This document shows, piece by piece, positions 1-17,040 of a stretch of 22,398 nucleotides of DNA. The first letter of the stretch is position 1. Each line of letters opens with the position of its first letter. A model generated the notes under the pieces. That model saw only the letters and a list, made by a program, of their open reading frames with translations, did not search any database and had not been told where the DNA came from. The stretch lies in IMG/VR virus record IMGVR_UViG_2563366887_000003; one strand, given 5' to 3'. The position numbers and the translations under genes are program-made. This DNA is from a virus. Lineage: Duplodnaviria; Heunggongvirae; Uroviricota; Caudoviricetes.

Positions 1-1236
1 CTACGATAACCGCGCATTCAACATGGCTACCTGTTCGTCGTTCATGTCATCAATCCACATACCGTAAATTTCATACACCATCTGCGCAGTTTCATGCCCC
101 ATCTGGCTGGCTATAAACGCCGGGTTCGCTCCTGCCGTCAACAGCCAGCAGGCAAAAGTATGCCGCGTATGGTACGGATTACGGCGGCGAATACCAGCAC
201 GTTTTACTGCTGCATTCCATCTCGCACCCAAACTGCTTACCGAGTAATAAGGTTTCTGTTTTCCGTTACACACTCTGGGCATGAAAACAAAATGCAGTTT
301 TTGCTTTTCGGTTCTGCCGTACTCCCGATGATAAAAAGTGATTTCGCTTTTGCGATGATGCCCGGTCAGTTTGTATTGCTCCTTCAGTGCTTCAAGAGCA
401 GGCTGCAGTAGTGTTACCGTCCGGATCCCCGCATTTGTTTTTGGGGGACCGAACATATCCAGTATCGTCAGGTTTCTTCTGACATTCACAACTCCCTTCT
501 CGAAATCCACATCCTCCCACGCCAGAGCAGCCAGTTCCCCGTGACGAAGCCCGGAGTATACGGCAAATTTCCACAAGTTCTGGCTCTGTCCTTTTTCACT
601 TTCCATTAATGCATTGAATTCTGTTTTAGATAACGGGTCAGGCTTTATTCTGTTTCTCTGTAATTTCTTTACTCCTTCAAATGGTTTGGTTGATATAAAT
701 CCCGACTGATACGCAAAACGTAACAACGAACAGAGCAGGGCGATATAGTTATCAACTGTGCGCACGGTTCTTCCTTTTTTGTTGGATCTTGGATTATCCA
801 GGTAAAGCGTTTCTCCATGCAGCAGTTCATTCCGGTAGTTTAAGATATCGCTATAACGAATATGCGATATCGGAGTACTCTCACAAATTATTATCCTGAG
901 TGTTTTTAATTGTGATTTCGTTTTCTTCATTGTGTTTGTTGTTAACTCTGTTTCTTTAATTTTTGTCCAGATATCACAAAGCTCCCCGAACGTTTTTATG
1001 ACCCTCGTTGTCACCATTTTTGCCCCAGTGCTGGACTGGGGAAAACGTCTTAAATACTCAAACTCACCGGAATTGATTTCATGAACTATCAACGCTCTTA
1101 AATTCCCGGCTTTTTTAATGTTACTGTTAGTAACCTCCCAGCCTTTCAATGTTTCCCGACATCGTTTTCCTCGAAACATGAACCAGATGCGAATGTATTT
1201 ACCTCGAATCTCGACACCTGTTGGTAATTTAGACAT
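1..1236 (-). CDS. intR: Phage tyrosine integrase, Rac IntR-like (411 aa)
   Basis: Full-length minus-strand ORF; ATG at 1234-1236, stop at 1-3. N-terminal sequence MSKLPTGVEIRGKYIRIWFMFRGKRCRETLKGWEV and C-terminal HxxR...Y region match my recollection of Rac/lambdoid integrases. Sits directly beside an excisionase-like gene. Confidence 0.9.
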   Translation of the reverse strand: MSKLPTGVEIRGKYIRIWFMFRGKRCRETLKGWEVTNSNIKKAGNLRALIVHEINSGEFEYLRRFPQSSTGAKMVTTRVIKTFGELCDIWTKIKETELTTNTMKKTKSQLKTLRIIICESTPISHIRYSDILNYRNELLHGETLYLDNPRSNKKGRTVRTVDNYIALLCSLLRFAYQSGFISTKPFEGVKKLQRNRIKPDPLSKTEFNALMESEKGQSQNLWKFAVYSGLRHGELAALAWEDVDFEKGVVNVRRNLTILDMFGPPKTNAGIRTVTLLQPALEALKEQYKLTGHHRKSEITFYHREYGRTEKQKLHFVFMPRVCNGKQKPYYSVSSLGARWNAAVKRAGIRRRNPYHTRHTFACWLLTAGANPAFIASQMGHETAQMVYEIYGMWIDDMNDEQVAMLNARLS

Positions 1237-1237
1237 A

Positions 1238-1453
1238 TCATGAGTCTTTGATAAACTGATTTATCTTTGGATAGTTATACCAGATAATCCCTCGCTTACT
1301 GTCTGGCTTCCCTAAAGGAGATACTCGTTTGAAGTGGAAGCCTTCCACCCAACAGTTCTGGCGGTATGCTTCAATTTGTCTGGCCCCCAGACCAGTGCGA
1401 AGCATCAGGCCGTATTCAACCATCCACTCTTCATTAAAGATTACTTGTGCCAT
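1238..1453 (-). CDS. xisR: Excisionase-like small DNA-binding protein (71 aa, XisR/YdaQ-like)
   Basis: ATG at 1451-1453 preceded by GAGGTGA Shine-Dalgarno; stop TGA lies 1 nt from the int start codon. The 79-aa track ORF starts at an upstream TTG, so I trimmed it to the ATG. Position next to int is typical for xis. Confidence 0.7.
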
Positions 1454-1552
1454 CGCATCACCTCTGGCAGGCGCCAATGTTAGACTTAAATTGACGCCCG
1501 ATGTTGATTATTAATAATCAGCTATGAAGTTTTAATTTGAATACAATGCAAT

Positions 1553-1753
1553 TCACGAGGACTGAAGTTTCTCGCAATTAAAATTTATCAGTTTTACTTT
1601 CTGCTCTCTGGAAACGCCTGCTTCTTTTTTACCTGAGAGCATTTTTTCGCATTCTGATTTCGTTAGTTTAGATTTTGAATATCTTGTCCAGTTAGTAGGA
1701 GTGCCACCTTCCTTTTCAATAGTGGCGGTAATTTTATACATGAACACCTCCAT
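1553..1753 (-). CDS. ydaC: Small Rac protein YdaC-like (about 62-66 aa)
   Basis: ORF MEVFMYKITATIEKEGGTPTNW... matches my memory of Rac YdaC. Start is ambiguous between ATG at 1753 and ATG at 1741, which has a GGAGGTG Shine-Dalgarno just upstream. Confidence 0.55.
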   Translation of the reverse strand: MEVFMYKITATIEKEGGTPTNWTRYSKSKLTKSECEKMLSGKKEAGVSREQKVKLINFNCEKLQSS

Positions 1754-1778
1754 TATTATTTCCAGTGGTTCGTTTATT

Positions 1779-1928
1779 TCATCGTTCGAGTGCTTCTTTT
1801 TCACTTCCACCATAACCGGTTCGGGATTCGCATCCGTTACACTTCGCTCGGTAATATCCTGAAATGGCTTTCACCGTTACTGATGGACAACCACAAAATG
1901 GACATGGTTTAACATTGTCATATCTCAT
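1779..1928 (-). CDS. ralR: Restriction-alleviation protein RalR/Lar, truncated to 49 aa by a premature TGA
   Basis: Minus-strand translation MRYDNVKPCPFCGCPSVTVKAISGYYRAKCNGCESRTGYGGSEKEALER then TGA. The next 14 in-frame codons (NKRTTGNNNGGVHV, then TAA) reproduce the C-terminus of the 64-aa K-12 protein as I recall it, so codon 50 is TGA where TGG (Trp) is expected. Confidence 0.7.
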   Translation of the reverse strand: MRYDNVKPCPFCGCPSVTVKAISGYYRAKCNGCESRTGYGGSEKEALER

Positions 1929-1983
1929 AATTTTTCTCATAAAAATATTTCAAGTTGGCGGTGCATTACACCGCCAGGCTGAA

Positions 1984-2792
1984 TTATTCCTCTGAATTAT
2001 CGATTACACTGTATTCCCCGGTTAATACAGAGGAATCTGCAGGATCGATTGTCAGTGGTTCCTTTTCATCCATTGATACTGCACGCTGGATCTCAATTGA
2101 TACGGGCAGATATTTGAACAGGCGACGAATAGCCGTTTTCTTTGCCATTTCTTCCCAGTGAGTTACCCACGGCCCGTTATTACCAGCTTTACTCTGGCTG
2201 CGCACCAGCTCAATCTGTTTGCGCGTCATAACTTCAAACTGAGTACCTCCGTCTTTCAGTCTTGCGACAGCATAGACGTGGGTAACAGGGGCATCTTCGT
2301 TTTCTCCTGGGCGGTGTATTAACTTTTCATCAAGGCCAAATTCGAAATTAAACTCGTCACCTTCACGGACAACACGGGCTGACAGGCTGGCGATTTGACC
2401 TGAACGGCGAGCCAGATCAATCATGCCGCGATAGCCAATGATTAGCTGAACGTTTTTTTACCGCTCTTTTCGTTTTTATTACCAAAAGGCAGTAAATATG
2501 CATGACCGAGGGCGCTACCGGGCTCAAGTCCGAGCTGTGAACACTGTACGATTGCACTGACAAAACTCATAGTGTCACAGTTTCCTAACGCCGGAACTTT
2601 ACGAATTTCTGTGGTGGCGATACGGATCATACGTTCAGCCGTCATATGGCGTGGAAGAGCTGCTGCCAGTTGCTCTTTCATTGATGGCTGGTTAATAAAA
2701 CTAATCACGTCGTTATTTTTAATTGCTGCTGGTGCACGGTTTCCCTGAGTTTTTTGCAGATCGGCTTTTGCGATTGGTGGTTGCTTAGTCAT
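1984..2792 (-). pseudogene. recT: recT (RecT single-strand annealing recombinase) disrupted by a -1 frameshift in a homopolymer
   Basis: Two adjacent minus-strand ORFs (2442..2849 and 1984..2424) together give exactly the 269-aa RecT sequence if one A is added to the A7 run (plus-strand T7 at 2453-2459). The N-terminal fragment ends ...NEKSGKKTFS*; the downstream frame continues NVQLIIGYRGMIDLARR... Confidence 0.85.
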
Positions 2793-5385
2793 TTGCATAT
2801 TCCTTAGCCCAGCGGGGCAGTGATAACGTCTTAATAGCTGGCCATTCATCGGTATTGAGGCAGTCAGCCAGGGTTCGCAGATTGCGGTGATATTCCAGCT
2901 GACCTGCCAGTTTTGCTTCTTCGCCCATCATGAAAATTTCAACCGGATAACGTCCGCATTCAATAGTTGTGCTGGCAACCAGAAAAACGAAAGTTGGCTG
3001 CACTCCAAACTGTGCTTCATAACCGTCACTGTAGAATGCATCCTGAACGTGATAGCGGTAGTCGTAATAAGCGGTTTTGAATCGTTGAATATCCGCCGTA
3101 GTTTTCACGTCCATGATCCAGTGAAATTCAGGGATAATTTTGTCCGGACGGCACCGACACAAAATTGCTGTTTCAGGATCTTCCCAGTAAATTGATGATT
3201 CAGCGTGTCCGGCGCTTTCAACAAGCCATTGCCCCAGCGGCAAAGCCATAACGCTCTGATACATGAGTTCAATTTTCCGGCCTTCTTCGGCAGTGATAAC
3301 CGTTTTTCCTGTGCTTGCGCATTCCCTCAGAAACGCTTTCTCTTCTTCTTTTCCGGAGTTTGTCCGGCGGTTAAATTCAGGTGCTACGATAAAGCGGTTA
3401 CTGAATTCTTCCGGCTCAAGTACCCGGCAGTGGAAAGCGGTTCCTAAATCGAGCGTTTTTGTCTTTGTGGTGTCCACGGGGGCATTTTTACGCCACAAAT
3501 ACAGTGCCGGAGTATCAGCAATGTCATCGAGCTGAGACTTACTGACACCGGGACCCGCGTGGTAATTCTCATTCGAAATTCCGTAATAAATACCTGGCTC
3601 TATGTCTTCTACGATTACGGGATCTGCGACTTCGCCAGTTTCATCACTGCAATCGCGATGCGGATCGCTGCCAGCATTCTCATTGTGCGGATGTTCAGCG
3701 CCTTCCATTTCCTCCGGATCATTTTCCTTAGCTTCAACCTGACTCTCTTCATCGAATGTTTCCTGGTATGTTGCGTCGCCCATCACCGCACCACAGTCAG
3801 GGCAGTTATCCCCGCCAGTCTGGCCGCAGGCATTGCAGGCTATTTCCGGTTCCTGTTGCACTACTGGCTCAGGTTGATTCATATCCGGGCTGGTTTTTTC
3901 CGTTTCTGGCTGGTTCTGGTACACACAATCGCGAGTCTGGATCCCCTTTACCCATTTCGGATCGTTCGGGTCGCTAATTCCGTCAACAAATTCACCACGT
4001 GATGCAGCAAGCAATTTATCGGCATCGACAGGATTTTTTGATGGAATGTTTTTCCGGGCTTCATGGAGTTCTGCCCGCAGTTCCTGATATTTCGCATCAA
4101 CAGAATTTACCTGTGACTGAGCATCCAGCGGCTGCGTGTCCTGATGATGTTCAGTTGCGTCCGGTTCCATTGTTTCAGCCTCTCCCTGTTCAACTGCCGT
4201 TGTTCCAGATGGTTGCGGTTTTTCTTCATCATCCTGTTTTCCTTCTTCTGTTACTCGCTGCGGCATCGGGGCAGAGGAGCGACCGCAGGCAATATCCACG
4301 ATTTCCGGATCAGGGTTGGCATGATCGGTTTCAGTCAGTACTTTGTTCAGATATTCAGTGACGTGCGCGGGGATGACCTCGATCCCAATTGGTGCTTCTT
4401 TTACGGACGCAACCACGATGGCGCGGGAATAATCCAGCCCGCCAGGCATGGTGATGAATTTGTCGCGGAAAACAGAAAAGGGCGGTTTATTTTCAGCGAT
4501 AATTTCCTCAATGCGTTTAGCGTGTGCCGGATGAAGGTTATAGATGTCCAGATCCATTGAACGGGCCAGTACGCCAGTGGCTACGTCCCGCGCCAGTGAC
4601 GTCAGATCGTGTACGAAACCTTCGCCGCGATCGGTGAGGTTTCCGCCGCCAGCATTAGCACCGGAAGCCGTGCGAGTGATGTGTGAAACACGATTACCCT
4701 TCATCCACTCTTTTGTCAGCAGTCCTCGATCGGTGTAGTCAGCGTTCAGGTATGCTTCGAAAAAAGCAGTTATCAGTCCCAGGTTTGAATTACCAGGATT
4801 AGGGAAAACTTTGTCAGTGTCACGAACCAGTTTGTGGAGTTCGCGAATTTCCAGCGGGTCGAGCAGGCTGGTTTTGTGGGAAACAGCCAGGGCAGTAACA
4901 GCCGGTAGTTCTTCAGCCCGAGCAATGTGTAATGCCTGGAGTCCGTCGCGTGAAACGTGCGTTACCGGTTTTTCGCTGCCGTGTTGAGCAAGCCAACGAA
5001 TGGGCAGTTCCTGGCCAGAAATTGGGAGTAGCATATTCTCCTCAATCTCAGTCATGTCTTCGCCGTTGACGTTGGTATTGCCTTGATAGTGAGCGTTGTC
5101 TGGTGCTGCTCCCGGTTTTAGTTCCCATGTCATGGAGTCTTTGCTGAGTTGATAGCGTTCACTCCAGGTAAAATCGATCTCACCTTCAGCGGGCAGGTCA
5201 TTAACGACAGGAAAATTCGTGGCAACAGCTTTAAAATAGCTGCTCAGTTTTTTACCTGACTTAACGATCAGGTAGTCCAGAGTGGCACAGGTCGATTCAA
5301 AATCGTTGCTTGCCCACAGGACGACGTCAGGTTCACCGGATGATTTTTTCGCTTTCCGTAACAGGAAGAGTGGTTTTGTGCTCAT
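2785..5385 (-). CDS. recE: Exodeoxyribonuclease VIII RecE (866 aa), intact
   Basis: Uninterrupted 866-aa minus-strand ORF, the same length as K-12 RecE; recognisable acidic central region and C-terminal nuclease region. Its stop overlaps the recT start by 8 nt. Confidence 0.9.
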
Positions 5386-5457
5386 TGTTTTTTAACCTCA
5401 ACTCAGATTAAAATTCGTTTTGTTCAGTGAATGATCTTGCCGGATACACACTGTTCA

Positions 5458-5480
5458 TAGCCTGCGCCATACGCAGGCTA
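5458..5480 (+). other. Perfect 9-bp stem-loop in the racC-recE intergenic region
   Basis: tagcctgcg-ccata-cgcaggcta followed by tttctttc on the plus strand, i.e. oriented as a terminator for antisense (plus-strand) transcription. On the coding (minus) strand no U-run follows it. Confidence 0.3.
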
Positions 5481-5486
5481 TTTCTT

Positions 5487-5762
5487 TCAGATTTCACCTT
5501 TTAATTTCATTGCAATTAGAGTTGCCAGAAATTCGGCTTTTTTTTCTGCGGGCAGATTCTTTCCGATATGCACCAGGCACATTTTTTTGACACCTTCATC
5601 AAGTGTTTTTACGTTGCCTGATGGACCATCGATATCAACCACAGTGAATGGGGTTTCTTTATTTTCTGTTTTAATTACGTAGCCAATGCGCTTTCCTTCC
5701 AGATTCACCTCGTGAACAATGTCATCGGTAGTTACAACAGTGGCTTCATAATTGGTAATCAT
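5487..5762 (-). CDS. racC: RacC (91 aa)
   Basis: MITNYEATVVTTDDIVHEVNLEGKRIGYVIKTENKETPF... matches my recollection of Rac RacC. ATG at 5760-5762 is preceded by AAGGAG; the 107-aa track ORF has no Shine-Dalgarno at its upstream start. Confidence 0.8.
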   Translation of the reverse strand: MITNYEATVVTTDDIVHEVNLEGKRIGYVIKTENKETPFTVVDIDGPSGNVKTLDEGVKKMCLVHIGKNLPAEKKAEFLATLIAMKLKGEI

Positions 5763-5836
5763 GTTTTTCTCCTTAATTAAGGTTGAGCGAATACCTGCCA
5801 TTTCTGGCATAAATTCAGTTTCGAATAGTCAATTAA

Positions 5837-6007
5837 TTAAAGTTCATGTGCCATCTGGTCTTTTTCGGCACAAGCTTCACTGCAATATTTTCTCGGTTCG
5901 TCTTTTGATAAAATCCCGTGCATGAAGTGAAGCATTCTTTCAATAGCTTTGCTTTCTTCAACGTCTTTTTTGCAAAGGTGGTAAGCACATTTTATTTTCT
6001 TAGTCAT
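5837..6007 (-). CDS. ydaE: YdaE-like small Cys/His-rich protein (56 aa)
   Basis: Below the track's size cutoff; my translation is [56 protein letters not shown]. Its start codon overlaps the kilR stop (TGATGA). Confidence 0.75.
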   Translation of the reverse strand: MTKKIKCAYHLCKKDVEESKAIERMLHFMHGILSKDEPRKYCSEACAEKDQMAHEL

Positions 6008-6228
6008 CACCATGACTCCGCCTTTACAGGTAAACCATCACGACCGAGGAAGACTTTAATCATGCGGTCAGTAATGCATGTTTTTGTGGTCAGGTTACGA
6101 ATATATAGTTTTCGCTTTTTAATATTGTTTGCCGAGGCAATATATGTCCGGCCTTCATGAAGAACATAATCGCCAGGAGTCACACACTGACGTGGTATTT
6201 CATCAGTTCCGAAGTGATGTGCAATCAT
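6007..6228 (-). CDS. kilR: KilR, FtsZ-targeting cell-division inhibitor (73 aa)
   Basis: [46 protein letters not shown]... matches my recollection of Rac KilR. ATG at 6226-6228 has a GGAGA Shine-Dalgarno; the track ORF starts 4 codons upstream. Confidence 0.85.
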
Positions 6229-6669
6229 AATTATCTCCATTTTTACAAATGAACTTTGTTGATGCGGTGCCTGGTGCCTCCAGGTGACTGCAACCAGTTA
6301 ACAATTACAGTCGGCTTTCCCACCCAAACCAATAAGGACTAACATGACTTTTAACTGTGCCACGTGCGCTTAGCCGCATTCACCGCATCACAAAATTCAC
6401 TTTAAAAAGGGCGGACATCAGCCGAACTTCAAGAAAAAAACTGATGCCGCCAGGACTACACACAGCAATGTCGTTATTTACAACCGGAGGCGCACTCCCA
6501 CCATTTAAATTTAACAGACAAGACCGACTCTTTATGGATACCGGAAATGCGCCTTCGTGTTGTGCCCGGTTTTATTTCACCACCTCCGGGCTTCGGTGGT
6601 CTCGGCTATACCCCTACAGCGAGAGCTTGTGTTAACATTTCAATACCCTTACAGTTGAGAGTTATTGAT

Positions 6670-7158
6670 ATGTTGGATGTATTTACTCCATTGTTGAAAC
6701 TTTTTGCTAACGAGCCACTCGAAATACTTATGTATACGATTATCATTTTTGGTCTCACTCTCTGGCTGATACCGAAAGAGTTTACTGTCGCATTCAATGC
6801 TTATACTGAAATACCTTGGCTCTTTCAGATTATCGTTTTTGCCTTTTCTTTCGTGGTCGCCATTTCCTTCTCAAGATTGCGAGCACATATTCAAAAGCAT
6901 TATTCATTACTACCAGAGCAACGAGTATTGCTTCGTTTATCTGAGAAAGAAATCGCTGTATTTAAAGATTTCCTTAAAACAGGAAATCTTATTATCACTT
7001 CTCCTTGCCGTAACCCGGTTATGAAAAAATTAGAACGGAAGGGCATCATTCAACATCAGAGTGATAGCGCAAACTGTTCTTATTATCTCGTCACCGAAAA
7101 ATACTCCCATTTTATGAAGTTATTCTGGAACAGCAGGAGTAGACGTTTTAATCGTTAG
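6670..7158 (+). CDS. sieB: Superinfection exclusion protein SieB (162 aa)
   Basis: MLDVFTPLLKLFANEPLEILMYTIIIFGLTLWLIPKEF... with hydrophobic N-terminal segments; matches my recollection of Rac SieB. The track ORF begins upstream at a non-ATG position. Confidence 0.85.
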   Translation: MLDVFTPLLKLFANEPLEILMYTIIIFGLTLWLIPKEFTVAFNAYTEIPWLFQIIVFAFSFVVAISFSRLRAHIQKHYSLLPEQRVLLRLSEKEIAVFKDFLKTGNLIITSPCRNPVMKKLERKGIIQHQSDSANCSYYLVTEKYSHFMKLFWNSRSRRFNR

Positions 7159-7310
7159 CTTACTGTGTGCTTCTCCAACCATCGGCGCGCACCAGTTTCG
7201 GTTTTAAATGTTTTGCTTTTGGTATACGTCATGGCAGTGAACGTTCCATCCTGGTTGGGGAACACGCCGCACACCAGGGATTCGTTGTTGCCGAGGTCGA
7301 TTTTTTGCAT
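7155..7310 (-). CDS. ydaF: YdaF-like small protein (51 aa)
   Basis: Below the track cutoff; my translation is MQKIDLGNNESLVCGVFPNQDGTFTAMTYTKSKTFKTETGARRWLEKHTVS. Overlaps sieB tail-to-tail by 4 nt. Confidence 0.7.
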   Translation of the reverse strand: MQKIDLGNNESLVCGVFPNQDGTFTAMTYTKSKTFKTETGARRWLEKHTVS

Positions 7311-7320
7311 TTTGCGAATC

Positions 7321-7455
7321 TCACATCTTGTTGCTGTGTATAGCGACTTCTGCCTGCCAGAGATCCCAGTCGTTGCTGCGTAAAGCCTGCACAGCCTGGT
7401 TGTAAGTGATACCGCAACAATCCATCAAATACTGAACTACTTCGTAATGCACCAT
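7321..7455 (-). CDS. ydaG: YdaG-like small protein (44 aa)
   Basis: Below the track cutoff; my translation is MVHYEVVQYLMDCCGITYNQAVQALRSNDWDLWQAEVAIHSNKM. Confidence 0.7.
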   Translation of the reverse strand: MVHYEVVQYLMDCCGITYNQAVQALRSNDWDLWQAEVAIHSNKM

Positions 7456-7504
7456 CTTATCTCTCCCCTTAACGCCGGGTGACCTAGTTTTACCATCGCT
7501 GCAT

Positions 7505-7648
7505 ATGGCAAACCGCGAACTGCGTCGGGCGAAAAATCATGTCCAGAAGTGGGAGCGAGTCTGCGCCGCGCTGCGGGAGCTGAACAAGCACCGGGATATT
7601 GTCCGACAGATTGTCGATTCCTCCAGTCGTATTGTGTCGGAAAAGTGA
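7505..7648 (+). CDS. Small charged ORF (47 aa), possibly the N-terminal part of a gene split by an in-frame TGA
   Basis: ATG at 7505; translation MANRELRRAKNHVQKWERVCAALRELNKHRDIVRQIVDSSSRIVSEK; no obvious Shine-Dalgarno. It is in the same frame as the 7664 ORF, separated only by TGA (7646-7648) and five codons. Confidence 0.25.
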   Translation: MANRELRRAKNHVQKWERVCAALRELNKHRDIVRQIVDSSSRIVSEK

Positions 7649-7663
7649 TTGCCGGAGGCGCTT

Positions 7664-8080
7664 ATGGCAAAAGTTTTTACACAGGAAGAGCGTGAAAAAA
7701 TTAAGGAGCAGGTTGTTGAGTTGGTACGCCAGAGTGGGCGCGAGACGTTAAGGCAACTGGAGGCCAAGACAGGTGCGACAAGATATCTGATGAGCATTCT
7801 TGCCAGAGAGTTGGTTGCCAGTGGCGATGTATACAACTCTGGCTATGGGTTATTCCCGTCTGAACAGGCTCGTAAGGATTGGAAAAACGCCCGCAAAAAA
7901 CTATCCAGGGCAAAGGTGAAAAAAACGGTTGTGGTTGATCCTGACCTTATCTGGTCATTACCAGACGGAGAAATACGCCGCTATGACAGGCGTCAGAACA
8001 TAATCTGTCGCGAGTGCCGGAAGAGTGAAGTTATGAAACGTGTACTGGCATTTTATCAAGGAAATCTTCGGTATTTATAG
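7664..8080 (+). CDS. Hypothetical protein (138 aa), basic, possibly DNA-binding
   Basis: ATG at 7664 with GGAGG 5 nt upstream (the track ORF starts at TTG 7649). GC content and codon usage look host-like. I cannot assign a family. Confidence 0.55.
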   Translation: MAKVFTQEEREKIKEQVVELVRQSGRETLRQLEAKTGATRYLMSILARELVASGDVYNSGYGLFPSEQARKDWKNARKKLSRAKVKKTVVVDPDLIWSLPDGEIRRYDRRQNIICRECRKSEVMKRVLAFYQGNLRYL

Positions 8081-8218
8081 ACGTTACTAGATCAAAGAGC
8101 ATTAGTTCATATGTAAATTGACATTTTTCTGGCACAGGGGAGAGCTAGCGTGGTTGTCCGCTTTGTGCCAATAGCGGACATTGCTGGCTCATGGTATGTT
8201 AGTTTAAGGAGGCAGGTT

Positions 8219-9241
8219 ATGCCCTGTATTTCGCTGTGGTATAATAGTTGCGCAATTGATACAAGGGAGCGTTACATCGTGAAAATTGTTTTCGAGGTTA
8301 ATGGAAAGAAAGTTCCACTAAAATCTTTAAAATACATAAGCAAAAAAGATCAACTCGAAGTAATGAAAAACTGGTTCTTTGAAAACTTTGAAGATCCGGC
8401 AAATGCTTGTCCGTATGAAAGTAGAGAAGGTGGCTATGCTTACATATATGGCGGGCCGTATGATGCGAGCGAAGAACTACAATCCATCTTCGGTCAATAT
8501 GTTAAATCTGAGTATATTGAGGAATTAGTAGATGAATTACAAACACAATGTTTTGACTGGTCTGGAAACTCAAATAATATAGATGATTGGTACGATGATG
8601 ATATCTACGACGCTGTAACGTCTTCCGGTAATCCGTATTTAAAATTCATTGATAATATCGATAAAATAAAAAAACTTGCAAAAGATAAAACTGAACAACA
8701 GCAAAAAAACCACTTGCTTAGTTTGCTCTACACGAATGTTATTACAGCTTTGGAAACGCTTTATGTTGAGCTATTCATTAATTCTATAGAGAAAGATGAT
8801 GTCTACATAGCCAATTGTATAGAAAAAGGTAAGACTGAATTTAAAGTAAGCAAAGATATTGCTGCGTTGCCTTTCAAGGGTGAACCCATCGAGAAAATTA
8901 GGGGAGAGCTAATCAGGTCAATCAAGGAACACTTGATCAGTGCAAGCTGGCATAGCACTAAAAAGGTAATCGACCGCTATGAAGCTACATTCGATATAAA
9001 AGTACAAAAAGACTGTCCGATAGAAGCTATTGAATTGGCAACCCTCAATCGAAATCACTTAGTGCATCGTGGTGGAAAGGATAAAGAAGGGAACCTCGTA
9101 GTGATTACAGACCAGGATCTTGAAACGCTGATTGAAAATGCATCGAACCTGGCAATTATGCTCTACAACAGTTTAAATGTAGCAACGAATAAAACCACCA
9201 TTTTGCAACCAGATGACAAACCGTTCATTCATGAATTTTAA
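8219..9241 (+). CDS. Hypothetical protein A of an AT-rich two-gene operon (341 aa from ATG 8219, or 320 aa from GTG 8279); C-terminal region carries an R-x4-H motif (RNHLVH) reminiscent of HEPN domains
   Basis: Long ORF with a sharp shift to AT-rich composition from about 8280. ATG 8219 has a perfect TAAGGAGG 6 nt upstream. Alternative GTG 8279 has AAGGGAG upstream and follows an extended -10 (TGgTATAAT at 8237-8245). No family recognised by eye. Confidence 0.7.
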   Translation: MPCISLWYNSCAIDTRERYIVKIVFEVNGKKVPLKSLKYISKKDQLEVMKNWFFENFEDPANACPYESREGGYAYIYGGPYDASEELQSIFGQYVKSEYIEELVDELQTQCFDWSGNSNNIDDWYDDDIYDAVTSSGNPYLKFIDNIDKIKKLAKDKTEQQQKNHLLSLLYTNVITALETLYVELFINSIEKDDVYIANCIEKGKTEFKVSKDIAALPFKGEPIEKIRGELIRSIKEHLISASWHSTKKVIDRYEATFDIKVQKDCPIEAIELATLNRNHLVHRGGKDKEGNLVVITDQDLETLIENASNLAIMLYNSLNVATNKTTILQPDDKPFIHEF

Positions 9242-9256
9242 TAGCGCAGGTCATAC

Positions 9257-10258
9257 ATGGATATTCGCACACGAAAGACAAAATTTTTAGAGTCGTTAGA
9301 TTCAACTGAAGTGATACGCAAAGCAGTAAGTCTCGCTATAGATTGCATTATTGATAATCATAATAGTAATGAAGATACCCCCTTAGTTATTACCAGCTAT
9401 GATGATCTCTGTAGAATCCAGGTGCTAAATTATGTACAGGAGTTTTGCGAAGCTGCATTCCCTGATATGGATGAATATTACTTTAGTCCTAACATACTTC
9501 GCATCAACGGCAAGACTAGTGAAGAAGCTTGTATTAACTTAATTAAACTCTTAAGAAGTACAAAAGGCATGCTATTCTGGTCCGATGCCCCATCGTGGTT
9601 CGCTAGCCTCCCCGACGGATTATTCCATGTTGTTAACATTGATCAAAAAATCGTTACTCGCGGCCTTAATAAGAAAAACTCTAAGCCGACAATAATCAAT
9701 AAAGATTACAGTGTAGATACACTACTATCAGAGCTATTTTTGAATGGCGCACACATGGAGCAACCCAACGTACACAACGTTTCTGAGGGAAACATGAAGT
9801 TCTATGATGAATGCCATGCTGGATTAATCAGACCAATACCCGCTCCAATAGGCGCGTCATACGATGAAGAGATCACAATTAATTCTCCAGATTGGCAAAA
9901 GCTCGCGTGTGTAGCTTTACGCCGCTATCAGTCGAAGGAATGTCATGACGGAATGCAATGGGATACAACCGATCATGGTTGGACTGATGTAATCGCGTAT
10001 CCATTCGTCGAAGAAATACAATCAATGGATAATAGTGGTTATCGACAATGTTTAGTTGGGCTGGTCACAATAAACAATTCAAATGCAAATTCTCCGTACC
10101 TATCTACCGTTTGGATACATCCATTTTATCGCAGGAGAGGGTTATTAAGTAAGTTATGGCCAAAATTACAAGAGTTATATGGAAGTAACTTCGAAATTGA
10201 GCGACCTAATGAAAATATGAAAGCATTTCTGAAAAGTGCGAAACACGCAGATTACTAA
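9257..10258 (+). CDS. Hypothetical protein B of the two-gene operon (333 aa)
   Basis: ATG 15 nt after the stop of protein A, same strand, same AT-rich composition. C-terminus (WIHPFYRRRGLLSKLW...NENMKAFLKSA) loosely resembles GNAT motifs A and B but the tail is too short for a canonical GNAT fold. Confidence 0.75.
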   Translation: MDIRTRKTKFLESLDSTEVIRKAVSLAIDCIIDNHNSNEDTPLVITSYDDLCRIQVLNYVQEFCEAAFPDMDEYYFSPNILRINGKTSEEACINLIKLLRSTKGMLFWSDAPSWFASLPDGLFHVVNIDQKIVTRGLNKKNSKPTIINKDYSVDTLLSELFLNGAHMEQPNVHNVSEGNMKFYDECHAGLIRPIPAPIGASYDEEITINSPDWQKLACVALRRYQSKECHDGMQWDTTDHGWTDVIAYPFVEEIQSMDNSGYRQCLVGLVTINNSNANSPYLSTVWIHPFYRRRGLLSKLWPKLQELYGSNFEIERPNENMKAFLKSAKHADY

Positions 10259-12630: not shown

Positions 12631-12920
12631 TGGTGAATTTACGTAAAGCGGCTAAAGGCCAGATGTGCCAGATCAGAATCCCTGGCTACTGCAATCACAA
12701 TCCCGAAACCTCTGTGCTGGCGCATTACAGGCTGGCGGGGACGTGCGGAACAGCGACAAAACCACATGATATGCAGGCGGCGATAGCCTGTAGCTCATGC
12801 CACGATCTAATCGACGGGCGGGTAAAAACCAGCGATTACACCAAAGAAGAATTGCGCCTGATGCATGCTGAAGGGGTTTTTCGCACACAAGAAATCTGGA
12901 GAAAGAAAGGTCATTTATGA
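12630..12920 (+). CDS. YbcO-like DUF1364 protein (96 aa, Cys/His-rich putative nuclease)
   Basis: MVNLRKAAKGQMCQIRIPGYCNHNPETSVLAHYRLAG..CSSCHDLIDGR contains a Cys/His cluster. Same length and position (just before Q) as DLP12 YbcO. Confidence 0.7.
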   Translation: MVNLRKAAKGQMCQIRIPGYCNHNPETSVLAHYRLAGTCGTATKPHDMQAAIACSSCHDLIDGRVKTSDYTKEELRLMHAEGVFRTQEIWRKKGHL

Positions 12921-13459
12921 TTTACCCAACGAATACAGGAAAAAGCGGAGAACACCTTCGCCTCACCACGCTGGAAAGTGTCTGGATTCAGGGAAAACTA
13001 CGTATGTGGGGGCGCTGGTCGTATATTGGCGGTGGCAGGTCAGGGAATATGTTCAATCAGTTGTTGGCATACAAAAAACTGACGAAAACAGCCATTAATG
13101 AAGCCCTGCGCAGAATGAAAAAAGCGGGAATAGAGAAAGCTGAGCTGGAAGCGTTTTTGCGAGAGATGATCAACGGCAAGCAAAAGAGCTGGCTGGCGCA
13201 TTGTACTGATGCAGAGGCGTTATGTATTGATCGAGTCATAAGTGAGGTGCTGGCAGAGCATCCAGGATTGATTTGCATTCTCCGGCAACGCTATGAAGGG
13301 CGGGGGATGACTAAGCGCAAAATGGCTGAATTGCTAAATGATGCACACCCAGAGTGGTGTTTTAGCACATGCGAAAAACGGATTGCTAATTGGTTAGCTG
13401 TTGCTGAGTATGCCCTATATATTCCCATGCGTGAATCATTTGCTGAGAAAATGGCTTGA
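12917..13459 (+). CDS. Late-gene antiterminator Q-like protein (180 aa)
   Basis: ATGA start/stop overlap with the preceding gene. Last gene before terminators and the lysis cassette, which is the canonical Q position. Family called from position and general resemblance only. Confidence 0.55.
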   Translation: MIYPTNTGKSGEHLRLTTLESVWIQGKLRMWGRWSYIGGGRSGNMFNQLLAYKKLTKTAINEALRRMKKAGIEKAELEAFLREMINGKQKSWLAHCTDAEALCIDRVISEVLAEHPGLICILRQRYEGRGMTKRKMAELLNDAHPEWCFSTCEKRIANWLAVAEYALYIPMRESFAEKMA

Positions 13460-13540
13460 TTTCTTACGTATAAACTGCTTCAATTTTGCTATGCTTCGCA
13501 AAGCTGTATCGCGAGGCGGATTGCAGACATGGACATCGTA

Positions 13541-13566
13541 AAAAAACCGCTTAATGCGGTTTTTTT
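13541..13566. terminator. Bidirectional rho-independent terminator after the Q-like gene
   Basis: aaaaaaccgc-ttaat-gcggttttttt: a short GC stem flanked by an A6 run and a T7 run. Confidence 0.6.
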
Positions 13567-13886
13567 ACGTCAGGAAAGCAGGGGAGAATGCTGCTAGTTG
13601 GGCAACTGGTCTTTCTGCTCCAAATTATAACAGAGACCAGTTATAGTTTCGGTGCTGTGTTTTTTTTACAATATTGTGATAACACATTGCTGGCGGGAGT
13701 TTTGATATTTCTTGGCAGGGGCTGATGATGCGTTATCCTGATGTCGTCAACTCATATAAAATGAGATGAGAGATCATTGCAGGGTGGTTTGTAATTCGCT
13801 GTTTAGCGGGACAATATGTTGTCTGATACAAGACACCCGACGCCTCAGATTACTATAATAAAGACGAAGCATCCTTTGTATTGACC

Positions 13887-13912
13887 AACCGCCTGTTTAG
13901 GCGGTTCTTTTT
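13887..13912 (+). terminator. Rho-independent terminator (tR'-like candidate)
   Basis: aaccgcc-tgttta-ggcggtt followed by cttttt. Confidence 0.55.
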
Positions 13913-14444
13913 GGGCTGGTTTATTGTATGCCAAATGATTATTAAAAAGGTTGTGTTAATAACAAAATCCGAAATAATATGCCTGCATATTTTTATCTTG
14001 CTTATATTCTGCATATTGTGCATAGCAGGCTCATCCCTGCAATCAAAACTGTATGATGAGTATTTTTTGTTTTCCTTTTTTCCAGTCATCTGATGATGAC
14101 CTGCTTCTTTTTAATCCGGATCGACATCAGTTTTTTAAGATAATTCCTGCGAGTTATATGCATAAATGCCACAAACTCCGCATTTTATGTGGTTGGGAGT
14201 TGCCGGGCGCGCAGTGAGTTTGCTAAGAAAACTCCTGCATGGTGAATCCCCCTGTGCGGTGGGGTGATACCATTAACCTTTTCTGTCGCCGACAGGTATC
14301 ACGAACATTTTGTTCACCGGGAGGCACCCGGCACCATGCACTTCAATAGATTCTCTCCACATTATGGATATTCTTTCAGAATATCCCACGCAGACTTTGT
14401 GTAAATGTTAACAAATGTGCGTTTTATTTGATCTGATTCGCTGT

Positions 14445-14474
14445 TTGAGCGTCCAAAACAACGGTATATATAAT
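14445..14474 (+). promoter_or_regulatory. Candidate sigma70 promoter for the first TolA-like lipoprotein gene
   Basis: TTGAGC (14445-14450), 18-nt spacer, TATAAT (14469-14474), about 30 nt upstream of the start codon. Confidence 0.4.
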
Positions 14475-14503
14475 CCTTTACTATATGACATATGTGAGGA
14501 AAA

Positions 14504-14932
14504 ATGGGTTTTCGTAGCGCATCAATTCTTACGTTGATTATTAGTGGGATTATTATCGGGTGCACTGATGCTGTATCGACAAATTATCATGACCGTACAT
14601 CATATTACTCCGATAAAGCAATAGAGACACAGTATGTGAGTTCATCTGAACGTACTTCTGATGTTAGTGAGGATATCCGTCTGTATGCCCATCAAATCAA
14701 GAGCGCCATCGAAAAACAGTTCGGGGATGCGAGTAAGTATTCAGGAAAAGAGTGTACACTGAGAATGCATATGGCCCCGAATGGCCTTCTACTGGAGGTT
14801 AAAAGAGAAAGTGGAGACCTCGATTTATGTCGTGAAGCGATGAATGCGATAAAGAATGCTGATATACCTGCCCCCCCTTCGCCGGAAGTATATAAAGTAT
14901 TTCAAAATGGGGTGCTGGATTTTAAACCCTGA
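14504..14932 (+). CDS. Lipoprotein with a C-terminal TolA-domain-III-like domain (142 aa)
   Basis: Signal peptide with lipobox IIGC (MGFRSASILTLIISGIIIGC). C-terminal 85 aa, YAHQIKSAIEKQFGDASKYSGKECTLRMHMAPNGLLLEVKRESGDLDLCREAMNAIKNADIPAPPSPEVYKVFQNGVLDFKP, closely parallels the TolA C-terminus as I recall it (YAGQIKSAIESKFYDASSYAGKTCTLRIKLAPDGMLLDIKPEGGDPALCQAALAAAKLAKIPKPPSQAVYEVFKNAPLDFKP). Confidence 0.8.
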   Translation: MGFRSASILTLIISGIIIGCTDAVSTNYHDRTSYYSDKAIETQYVSSSERTSDVSEDIRLYAHQIKSAIEKQFGDASKYSGKECTLRMHMAPNGLLLEVKRESGDLDLCREAMNAIKNADIPAPPSPEVYKVFQNGVLDFKP

Positions 14933-15082
14933 TATTTATTGTTTTGTAATAAACGGTTTCGGCTTAGGTTTGTTCTGACACAGCTACGGCACTGAGCTAA
15001 ATTTAGCGGATAGTCAGCTCTGAGCCAGTGGCGGACGTAACAACTACTATTGCTGAGATTTTAATGGATTGAGGAGCAAGAA

Positions 15083-15478
15083 GTGGGATTAAAGAAAATC
15101 GTTATGTTGACTTTTTGGGTCGGTTTTGTTGCGGGATGCACACCTTTACACCCTTCAGATTGCCACAAAACTACTGCTACAGGTAGTTGCAGTTCAGGAC
15201 GCTGGGATGATCAGGATGAATGGGGGGCGCAAGCGCGGGGAATCAGAGCTGCAATTAATGCCAAACTTGATGAGCCGCATAACTGGAAAGGGAAAAAATG
15301 CAGGTTGCATATGGAATTCTCTCAGGATGGCACGGCGTTAAAAATATCTACCAGTAACGGTGATAAAGCCTATTGCGAAGCGATAAAGTCCGCAGCTCAT
15401 AAAGCCAAATTTCCGGCCTTCAACAATCCGGAAGTCTACAGAGATTTTCAGAAATCTGGCTTTGACATGCGAGGTTAG
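15083..15478 (+). CDS. Second, more divergent TolA-domain-III-like lipoprotein (131 aa)
   Basis: GTG start at 15083 with GAGGAG 6 nt upstream. Lipobox VAGC (MGLKKIVMLTFWVGFVAGC). C-terminus KKCRLHMEFSQDGTALKISTSNGDKAYCEAIKSAAHKAKFPAFNNPEVYRDFQKSGFDMRG keeps the two Cys residues and the PEVY motif of the first copy. Confidence 0.7.
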   Translation: MGLKKIVMLTFWVGFVAGCTPLHPSDCHKTTATGSCSSGRWDDQDEWGAQARGIRAAINAKLDEPHNWKGKKCRLHMEFSQDGTALKISTSNGDKAYCEAIKSAAHKAKFPAFNNPEVYRDFQKSGFDMRG

Positions 15479-15729
15479 CTCTTCAATTACTATATCTCAT
15501 TCATAGCAAACTGACAGATTTGATGATGTTCTATATACGAAACCTGTGATGTCAAGTCTGAGCTAATACAAATAAACATAATATCAGAGAAATACATTTT
15601 ATTAGCTCGCTACGGCGAGCTTTTTATATTGCATCGTCTCCAGCATATATATCAATTAAGGCTCTGATTGATGTGTCTGAAAGCCTACACATAATAACTA
15701 TGCCATCCGTTCCGTGCGGAGGTGAGGCT

Positions 15730-15945
15730 ATGAAATCCATGGACAAAATTTCAACAGGCATTGCCTACGGCACCTCCGCAGGCAGTGCTGGCTACTGGTT
15801 TTTACAGTTGCTCGATAGAGTAACTCCGTCACAGTGGGCTGCAATCGGTGTGCTGGGTAGTCTGGTATTTGGCCTGCTGACGTACCTGACAAACCTTTAT
15901 TTCAAGATTAAAGAAGATAAGCGCAAGGCTGCGAGAGGTGAATAA
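15730..15945 (+). CDS. Phage 21-type pinholin (S21-like, 71 aa) with dual-start motif
   Basis: [71 protein letters not shown]. Two in-frame ATGs (15730 and 15739; M-K-S-M) as in S21 antiholin/holin. GGAGGTGAGG Shine-Dalgarno upstream; TAATG overlap with the endolysin. Confidence 0.85.
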
Positions 15946-16442
15946 TGCCTCCATCATTACGAAAAGTCGTTGCTGCTGCTATTGGTGGCGGAGCAATTGC
16001 TATAGCATCAGTGTTAATCACTGGCCCAAGTGGTAACGATGGTCTGGAAGGTGTCAGCTACATACCATACAAAGATATTGTTGGTGTATGGACTGTATGT
16101 CACGGGCATACAGGAAAAGACATCATGCTCGGTAAAACGTATACCAAAGCAGAATGCAAAACACTCTTGAATAAAGACCTTGCCACTGTCGCCAGACAAA
16201 TTAACCCGTACATCAAAGTCGATATACCGGAAACAACGCGCGGCGCTCTTTACTCATTCGTTTACAACGTGGGTGCTGGCAATTTCAGAACATCGACGCT
16301 TCTTCGCAAAATAAACCAGGGCGATATCAAAGGCGCATGTGATCAGCTACGTCGCTGGACATATGCTGGCGGTAAGCAATGGAAAGGTCTCATGACTCGT
16401 CGTGAGATTGAGCGTGAAATCTGTTTGTGGGGTCAGCAATGA
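15945..16442 (+). CDS. SAR endolysin (R21-like lysozyme, 165 aa)
   Basis: N-terminal Gly/Ala-rich weakly hydrophobic signal-anchor-release segment ([20 protein letters not shown]) followed by a lysozyme-like domain; overlaps the holin stop and the Rz start. Confidence 0.85.
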
Positions 16443-16903
16443 ACAGAGTAACCGCGATTATCTCCGCTCTGGTTATCTGCATCATCGTCTGCCTGTCATG
16501 GGCTGTTAATCATTACCGTGATAACGCCATTACCTACAAAGCCCAGCGCGACAAAAATGCCAGAGAACTGAAGCTGGCGAACGCGGCAATTACTGACATG
16601 CAGATGCGTCAGCGTGATGTTGCTGCGCTCGATGCAAAATACACGAAGGAGTTAGCTGATGCGAAAGCTGAAAATGATGCTCTGCGTGATGATGTTGCCG
16701 CTGGTCGTCGTCGGTTGCACATCAAAGCAGTCTGTCAGTCAGTGCGTGAAGCCACCACCGCCTCCGGCGTGGATAATGCAGCCTCCCCCCGACTGGCAGA
16801 CACCGCTGAACGGGATTATTTCACCCTCCGGGAACGACTGGTAATGATGCAGGCCCAACTTGAAGGTGCTCAGCAATACATAACCGAGCAGTGTTTAAAG
16901 TAA
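16439..16903 (+). CDS. Rz-like i-spanin (154 aa)
   Basis: ATG at 16439 overlaps the endolysin stop (ATGA). N-terminal TM segment followed by a coiled-coil-like Ala/Arg/Asp-rich periplasmic domain. The track ORF starts at GTG 16427. Confidence 0.8.
16659..16844 (+). CDS. rzoR: Rz1-like o-spanin lipoprotein (61 aa), embedded in the +1 frame of Rz
   Basis: [24 protein letters not shown]...[15 protein letters not shown]: lipobox VVGC and a proline-rich tail; matches my recollection of Rac RzoR. Confidence 0.8.
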
Positions 16904-17040
16904 AATCTTAACTACAATATGATTCATTTTGATGATTGTTTCATAAGGAACAGTGAAGTAAGATCTAAGAGGAGTTAAATTTTATACAGTATAATCATAA
17001 TATTGCAGCAAGGTGGTTATAATTGAAAGAATATTTAGAT

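Follow-up and report, generated by a model that had tools for sequence, protein, structure and literature searches.

An intact phage-21-type lysis cassette in a defective Rac-type prophage

Introduction

The lysis pathway that combines a pinholin, a SAR endolysin and a spanin has been reviewed (PMC9636201), and the record of phage 21 (OL657228) annotates all of its parts: a dual-start antiholin/holin, a SAR endolysin, an i-spanin and an o-spanin. Escherichia coli K-12 has a cassette of this type, essD-rrrD-rzpD/rzoD, which likewise lies within a defective prophage, DLP12. The DLP12 cassette lyses cells when placed on a multicopy plasmid, its S-R-Rz/Rz1 operon affects the production of OMV under the regulation of host factors, and it has been proposed that it is possibly domesticated (PMC7918800).

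The Rac prophage of K-12 is a different case. Rac has been described as mosaic and variable between strains, and ydaS has never been found without racR (PMC5700373). In K-12 Rac, S and R are gone and so are the first ~7 codons of Rz; what remains of Rz, from about codon 8, is fused out of frame behind ydaW, which makes the pseudogene rzpR, and only rzoR is intact. An earlier note on the DNA studied here held that K-12 Rac keeps spanin remnants only, and the 5'-truncated rzpR together with rzoR is indeed all that we find in K-12. A literature search revealed no specific account of a lysis cassette in Rac.

Here, we analyse a Rac-type prophage of E. coli in a stretch of 22,398 nucleotides (hereafter, the window). 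We conclude, with a probability of about 0.85, that it has a lysis operon of the phage 21 family, intact and placed where lambdoid phages usually have theirs, i.e., between a Q-like antiterminator and the packaging genes. The configuration is common, ordinary and already annotated in hundreds of genomes; RefSeq names S, R, Rz and Rz1 in the nearly identical locus of strain FORC_081.

Results

The four genes of the cassette are tightly packed. S and R share a TAATG stop-start overlap (15943-15947), R and Rz share an ATGA (16439-16442), and Rz1 starts 220 nt past the start of Rz, which puts it in the +1 frame, wholly inside the larger gene. The overlapped junctions and the +1 frame of Rz1 had been claimed before, and both can be read directly from the sequence. 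Phage 21 has the same gene order, the same two overlaps, the same MKSM dual start and the same +1-frame embedded Rz1, and the DNA of the two elements is 94.4% identical over 15691-16828 (OL657228). Each of the four products matches its own Pfam family and the PHROG assignments agree. Given the Pfam E-values (4e-53 to 2e-19) and the DNA identity to phage 21, these are not chance open reading frames. All four are intact, with 90%, 98%, 93% and 95% protein identity to the S, R, Rz and Rz1 of phage 21, so that the description of the cassette as complete and of phage-21 type holds. S, Rz, Rz1 and the Q-like protein matched no specific NCBIfam family. A minus-strand frame of 45 codons (15624-15761) was set aside for want of family support.

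S (15730..15945, plus strand) encodes a class II pinholin of 71 aa (MKSMDK...) that matches PF04971, Phage_holin_2_1 or 'Bacteriophage P21 holin S', at 2e-35 and with 120.9 bits against a cut-off of 26. The dual start reported by the earlier note is present: in M1-K2-S3-M4, the first codon (15730) opens a 71-aa antiholin and codon 4 (15739) a 68-aa holin, the two align with the annotated starts of S21-71 and S21-68, and a GGAGG Shine-Dalgarno sequence stands 8 nt 5' of the first ATG. Both proteins are predicted to be made. A GTG at 15673 was rejected as start codon because it adds 19 residues that are absent from every homologue and because the Shine-Dalgarno sequence precedes 15730. The first transmembrane domain (TMD1, residues 1-26) is the same as in S21, weakly hydrophobic and SAR-like; TMD2 is hydrophobic, with a glycine-zipper-like face, and only residues 31-60 rise above the hydropathy threshold. 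Its identity to S21 suggests that S would make small pinholes that collapse the proton motive force (PMF) and not micron-scale holes. S is 94% identical to both EssD of DLP12 and the holin of phage mEp332. Two differences from S21 fall in TMD2, L47F and F49L, and both states occur in EssD and in the propagated phage mEp332. The sole residue absent from propagated phages or EssD is R30, in the loop between the TMDs, where others have K or Q. No identical S was found among the phage records, the best match being 97.2%.

R (15945..16442, plus strand; 165 aa) is a SAR endolysin of the GH24 muramidases (PF00959, Phage_lysozyme, 2e-45, 154.8 bits). Its best matches in the PDB are RrrD of K-12 (4zpu) and R21 (3hde and 3hdf), with E-values of 1e-94 to 1e-110. 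The lysozyme motif E-X8-D-X5-T (PMC9239132) is kept as E35-GVSYIPYK-D44-IVGVW-T50. The earlier note had held that inactivating substitutions in the catalytic residues of the endolysin or in the TMDs of the holin would speak against it; in the alignments we found none, and E35, D44 and T50 are all in place. The SAR-type N-terminus that it described corresponds to residues 4-31, a Gly/Ala-rich stretch (54% G, A, S or T) that is the same as in R21 but for A8V. This substitution sits at the start of the SAR helix, makes it more hydrophobic, and could slow the release of R. As in R21, release from the membrane and activation are predicted to depend on the PMF. Among 50,697 phage records, none has an identical R, A8V or A73T; the best match is 98.8%.

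Rz (16439..16903, plus strand; 154 aa) is an i-spanin, with a match to PF03245 (Phage_lysis, 4e-53, 179.6 bits) and one over its full length to PHROG 13. It has an N-terminal TMD (hydrophobic stretch 1-27), a periplasmic helical domain, and cysteines at positions 99 and 152. Rz1 (16659..16844, plus strand; 61 aa; PF06085, 2e-19) is a proline-rich o-spanin lipoprotein with the lipobox VVGC, whose cysteine is Cys20, the outer-membrane sorting residue Thr21 at +2, and Cys29. It is 100% identical to RzoR of K-12. The similarity to phage 21 and its relatives ends at 16828/16829, inside the Rz/Rz1 overlap. Beyond this point, Rz differs in its C-terminal ~20 residues and Rz1 in its final 4-5 (SGNDW versus SERG); both ends belong to a 3' module linked to trkG. 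Since one DNA segment encodes both C-termini, the two variants are inherited together, and the Rac-type Rz and Rz1 are predicted to form a complex through these C-termini and to fuse the membranes. In the phage collection, the exact 20-residue C-terminus of Rz and the SGNDW of Rz1 are found only in a set of vB_EcoS records and in one Salmonella record, and the best match to a propagated phage is 86.5%. The one vB_EcoS record that we checked, 683R6, is not a propagated phage; it is a prophage predicted computationally in a survey of genomes of clinical isolates.

The near-identity of these proteins to the characterised ones of phage 21 and DLP12 is our basis for assigning them the same mechanism. 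The S mRNA would give the antiholin S71, which starts at Met1 and has Lys2 in addition, and the pinholin S68, which starts at Met4. S68 would build up in the inner membrane until its weakly hydrophobic TMD1 leaves the bilayer, upon which TMD2 oligomers would form pinholes of nanometre scale and the proton motive force would collapse. R, exported by Sec and inactive as long as its N-terminal SAR helix holds it in the membrane, would then be freed into the periplasm, refold into an active muramidase (E35/D44/T50) and degrade the murein. Finally, the complex of Rz in the inner membrane and Rz1, a lipoprotein of the outer membrane, would remove the outer membrane barrier. The cassette is probably competent for lysis; we go no further than probably because R and the spanin have lineage-specific variants.

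The element around the cassette is a Rac-type prophage. Its left arm (intR to ydaG, window positions 1-7481) has 98.8% identity to K-12 Rac and shows synteny over intR, xisR, ralR/RalA, recT, recE, racC, kilR and sieB; the RalA antitoxin sRNA lies opposite ralR (1557-1735, plus strand; RF02694 of Rfam, 225 bits), as in K-12 Rac. The identity to K-12 Rac resumes in Rz and runs to past trkG (16459-18889, 99.3%); the fragment of 600 nt that spans the junction (16459-17058) is 98.8% identical. Directly 3' of the cassette stands trkG itself, a moron that is a marker of Rac (17041..18498, plus strand; Pfam TrkH 6e-145; annotated in RefSeq), where phage 21 has bor.

Further downstream are a full-length ParB-N-domain protein (18636-19424, plus strand) and a TET-associated glycosyltransferase (TAGT; 19399-20349, plus strand; PF20691, 4e-34). 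The pair separates trkG from the terminase remnant. In K-12, ynaK and ydaY appear to be its truncated counterparts, and the pair itself may be what is left of a DNA-modification module; no TET/JBP gene was seen within the window.

The prophage is otherwise defective, as had been claimed. No homologues of racR, ydaS, ydaT, ydaU or ydaV and no virion genes (head or tail) are present within the window; the immunity and replication region is missing as well. The small terminase is truncated at ~21172, where it abuts a truncated sitB that is followed by an intact sitA, both sit genes on the minus strand (20540-22398); the right arm of the prophage has thus been replaced or deleted up to a fragment of an iron/manganese transporter. 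The joint absence of racR, ydaS and ydaT agrees with the published finding that ydaS is always accompanied by racR (PMC5700373). The Rac locus of FORC_081 is 99.97-99.99% identical to the window, apart from 2.4 kb that it keeps and the window has lost: the repressor, a cro-like gene, ydaT, ydaU' and a DnaC fragment. The deletion point is at ~7481, between ydaG (7324-7455, minus strand) and DUF1627/DUF977 remnants (7481-8080). No single-piece match at 100% to this exact junction was found among the complete genomes searched, in which related but differing deletions occur. Neither chromosomal flank of Rac (ttcA on one side, uspF/ompN on the other) is inside the window; uspF and ompN come after the locus in FORC_081, just as they do in K-12, and in the 683R6 record ttcA lies beside the integrase gene.

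Beyond the remnants are two adjacent hypothetical frames on the plus strand that K-12 Rac lacks (8150-9241 and 9257-10258; 363 and 333 aa). Their Pfam matches, to HEPN/RES N-terminal domain 1 and to GNAT, are weak and below threshold, and they may be two morons with a defence or toxin-like role.

Between this part of the prophage and the cassette lies the presumed control region. The Q-like late antiterminator gene is intact (12917..13459, plus strand; 180 aa) and matches DUF1133 over its full length (2e-106) and, again over its full length, PHROG 753, 'anti-termination protein Q-like' (1e-78); its match to Phage_antitermQ is weak. Right after its stop codon comes a conserved block of 59 nt (13460..13518, plus strand), and 13518 is the exact point where the similarity to five prophage or phage records that share this Q type stops, as expected of a late promoter cognate to Q. 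The block is a putative late promoter and Q-binding site, in which TGcTATGCT (13487-13495) resembles an extended -10 element. It is followed by a strong hairpin with a 14-bp stem and a U-run, much like the tR' intrinsic terminator (13537..13569, plus strand): the 86-nt segment that contains it folds at -26.8 kcal/mol (z = -3.2), and 0 of 200 shuffles fold as well. A terminator scan and folding revealed another terminator-like hairpin at 13887-13906, and the scan a third one with a T-run, similar to an intrinsic terminator, about 100 nt 5' of S (15604..15627, plus strand; -13 kcal/mol, z = -4.4). With three such hairpins between the Q-like gene and S, efficient transcription of S-R-Rz should need antitermination by Q, which would be supplied by the resident Q-like gene or by a co-resident prophage of the same Q type. 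Because the early promoter and immunity region is also deleted, we lean towards an operon that is normally silent or leakily transcribed in its natural host.

The same interval contains two tandem morons with TolA C-terminal domains (14504-14932 and 15104-15478, plus strand; Pfam TolA, 2e-23 and 1e-14; also annotated in RefSeq). The region that includes both (14313-15720) is 99.9% identical to phage mEp460_ev081. Both genes belong to PHROG 5772, of unknown function, have a promoter-like site of their own (14445-14474) and the terminator at 15604, and lie at the moron site that holds stx in Stx phages. It is tempting to speculate that by mimicking TolA they could provide superinfection exclusion or resistance to colicins or phages. 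A match to the STnc100 sRNA family (14207-14393, plus strand; Rfam, 86.6 bits against a gathering threshold of 47) lies in non-coding DNA between the Q-like gene and these morons. No tRNA genes were found between Q and S in the window, unlike in phage 21 and 683R6; the 5' side of the phage 21 cassette is made of pR' and tRNAs, whereas here it has a different Q type (DUF1133) and the two TolA-like genes. One promoter-like site (15668-15695) is 3' of the last terminator and just 5' of S. It scores 9/12, and sites of that kind are about as frequent as in shuffled sequence (14 found versus 10.3 expected). A regulatory region of DLP12 type was considered and rejected, since the similarity to the DLP12-like phage mEp332 starts at 15715, only 15 nt before the start codon of S.

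The cassette is frequent in E. coli. It is contiguous with trkG in 691 of the 5426 complete genomes; the junction between the 3' end of Rz and trkG is present in 1523 genomes, and so ~45% of the Rac-type loci (691/1523) have the whole cassette, a rate of retention that speaks against the cassette being under strong selection. For each of S, R, Rz and Rz1, the exact protein sequence is on record for no fewer than 1000 public contigs; the names given there are EssD, RrrD, lysis protein and RzoD/RzoR. All four frames were open in the four other copies of the Rac locus that we sampled, and insertion sequences (IS) lie in or near the cassette in two genomes (H46 and H47) among the best 25 matches. 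S and R have pN/pS of 0.05-0.19 relative to phage and prophage homologues, where the range for R covers comparisons with more than 3 synonymous differences; these low values reflect constraint across the family as a whole and not necessarily in the prophage state. Between copies of the Rac locus, S diverges by 5-10% and Rz and Rz1 remain 99-100% identical, which indicates that the left side of the cassette has been exchanged by recombination.

Discussion

The earlier note spoke of a cassette retained in a defective prophage: the four intact genes at the Rac locus agree with this, but part of them may have been replaced instead of retained. We give roughly even odds to a recent mosaic replacement, in which the left part of the cassette and the TolA-like morons came from an active lambdoid phage. 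The near-perfect identity of 14313-15720 to mEp460_ev081 points this way, as do the N-terminus of S, which reads ISTGI as in phage 21 and mEp460 when other copies at the Rac locus have LTTGV, and the divergence of S between copies with near-identical Rz and Rz1. The data fit either direction of transfer, however, from prophage to phage or from phage to prophage, and the right part (the 3' end of Rz, Rz1 and trkG) is specific to Rac, with 99.3% identity to K-12. Replacement is also compatible with the main explanation, an intact operon of the phage 21 family, and does not exclude it.

Two further explanations concern what the operon does now. It could be a domesticated module, expressed at low levels for a host function such as peptidoglycan turnover, control of vesiculation, or biofilm-related or altruistic lysis, as was proposed for DLP12. 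This would be in line with the DLP12 precedent, where there is an effect on OMV and regulation by host factors (PMC7918800), with the promoter-like site at 15668-15695 past the last terminator, with the very wide distribution of the exact alleles, and with the low pN/pS. Yet the latter comes mostly from comparisons with phage copies and is a mark of selection in phages, the region 5' of S is unrelated to the regulatory region of DLP12, and the promoter-like site, at 9/12, is of a kind about as frequent in shuffled sequence. The cassette is, moreover, kept in only 45% of the genomes with the Rz-trkG junction, was lost by K-12, and has suffered IS insertions. We consider domestication unlikely. 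That the cassette looks intact and is impaired, because A8V and A73T in R, R30 in S and the Rac-type C-termini of Rz and Rz1 weaken or abolish lysis, seems very unlikely to us. The variant states of R, S and Rz/Rz1 are indeed absent from the propagated phages in the collection, the gain in hydrophobicity of the SAR helix by A8V could slow release, and weaker lysis would make the cassette tolerable in an element without a repressor. But the substitutions are all conservative and outside the catalytic triad, the Rz and Rz1 variants are co-inherited and keep their interacting cysteines, near-complete prophages at the Rac locus have the same spanin, and the frames are open in all sampled copies.

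An intact phage-21-family operon, probably silent or only leakily transcribed in its host, remains our preferred reading. One step beyond domestication as such, and distinctly unlikely, is that the Rac-locus cassette is a selected, host-controlled module for lysis or envelope remodelling, i.e., a second and independent domestication of a phage-21-type system besides DLP12. If it were, its expression would not need phage regulators but would start at the site at 15668-15695 or come from transcripts that run on from the TolA-like morons, and the variants of R (A8V and A73T) and of the C-termini of Rz and Rz1 would tune its activity. The two cassettes are close in sequence, with RrrD differing from R at 3 of 165 residues, and differ in their settings: DLP12 is another prophage at another locus, with another upstream regulatory region, the Q type QuuD, and Rz/Rz1 C-termini of phage-21 type.

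Beyond correct annotation, the significance of these results is small. They confirm that rzpR and rzoR of K-12 are what is left of an ordinary cassette of phage-21 type, which persists in complete form at the Rac locus of ~1/8 of the complete E. coli genomes. Such cassettes are a reservoir for recombination with superinfecting lambdoid phages. A strain without the Rac repressor region still has lysis genes that could kill it, and it is the terminators and the lack of Q activity that keep them silent.

The prophage 683R6 (ON470595) gives an idea of the Rac element before its decay. It shares with the window the order Q (DUF1133), S, R, Rz/Rz1, trkG, ParB-like gene, TAGT and small terminase, and is 98.7% identical to it over 15715-20997, with tRNAs in the place of the TolA-like morons. 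It has kept racR/ydaS/ydaT, the replication genes, and the terminase, portal, coat and tail genes. As a near-complete prophage of the Rac locus, it is a useful reference for Rac before decay; it does not prove the cassette to be functional in a viable phage, since it is a predicted prophage with chromosomal flanks. The record itself (ON470595.1, 'vB_EcoS-683R6') includes ~14 kb of chromosomal genes, from abgT to ttcA.
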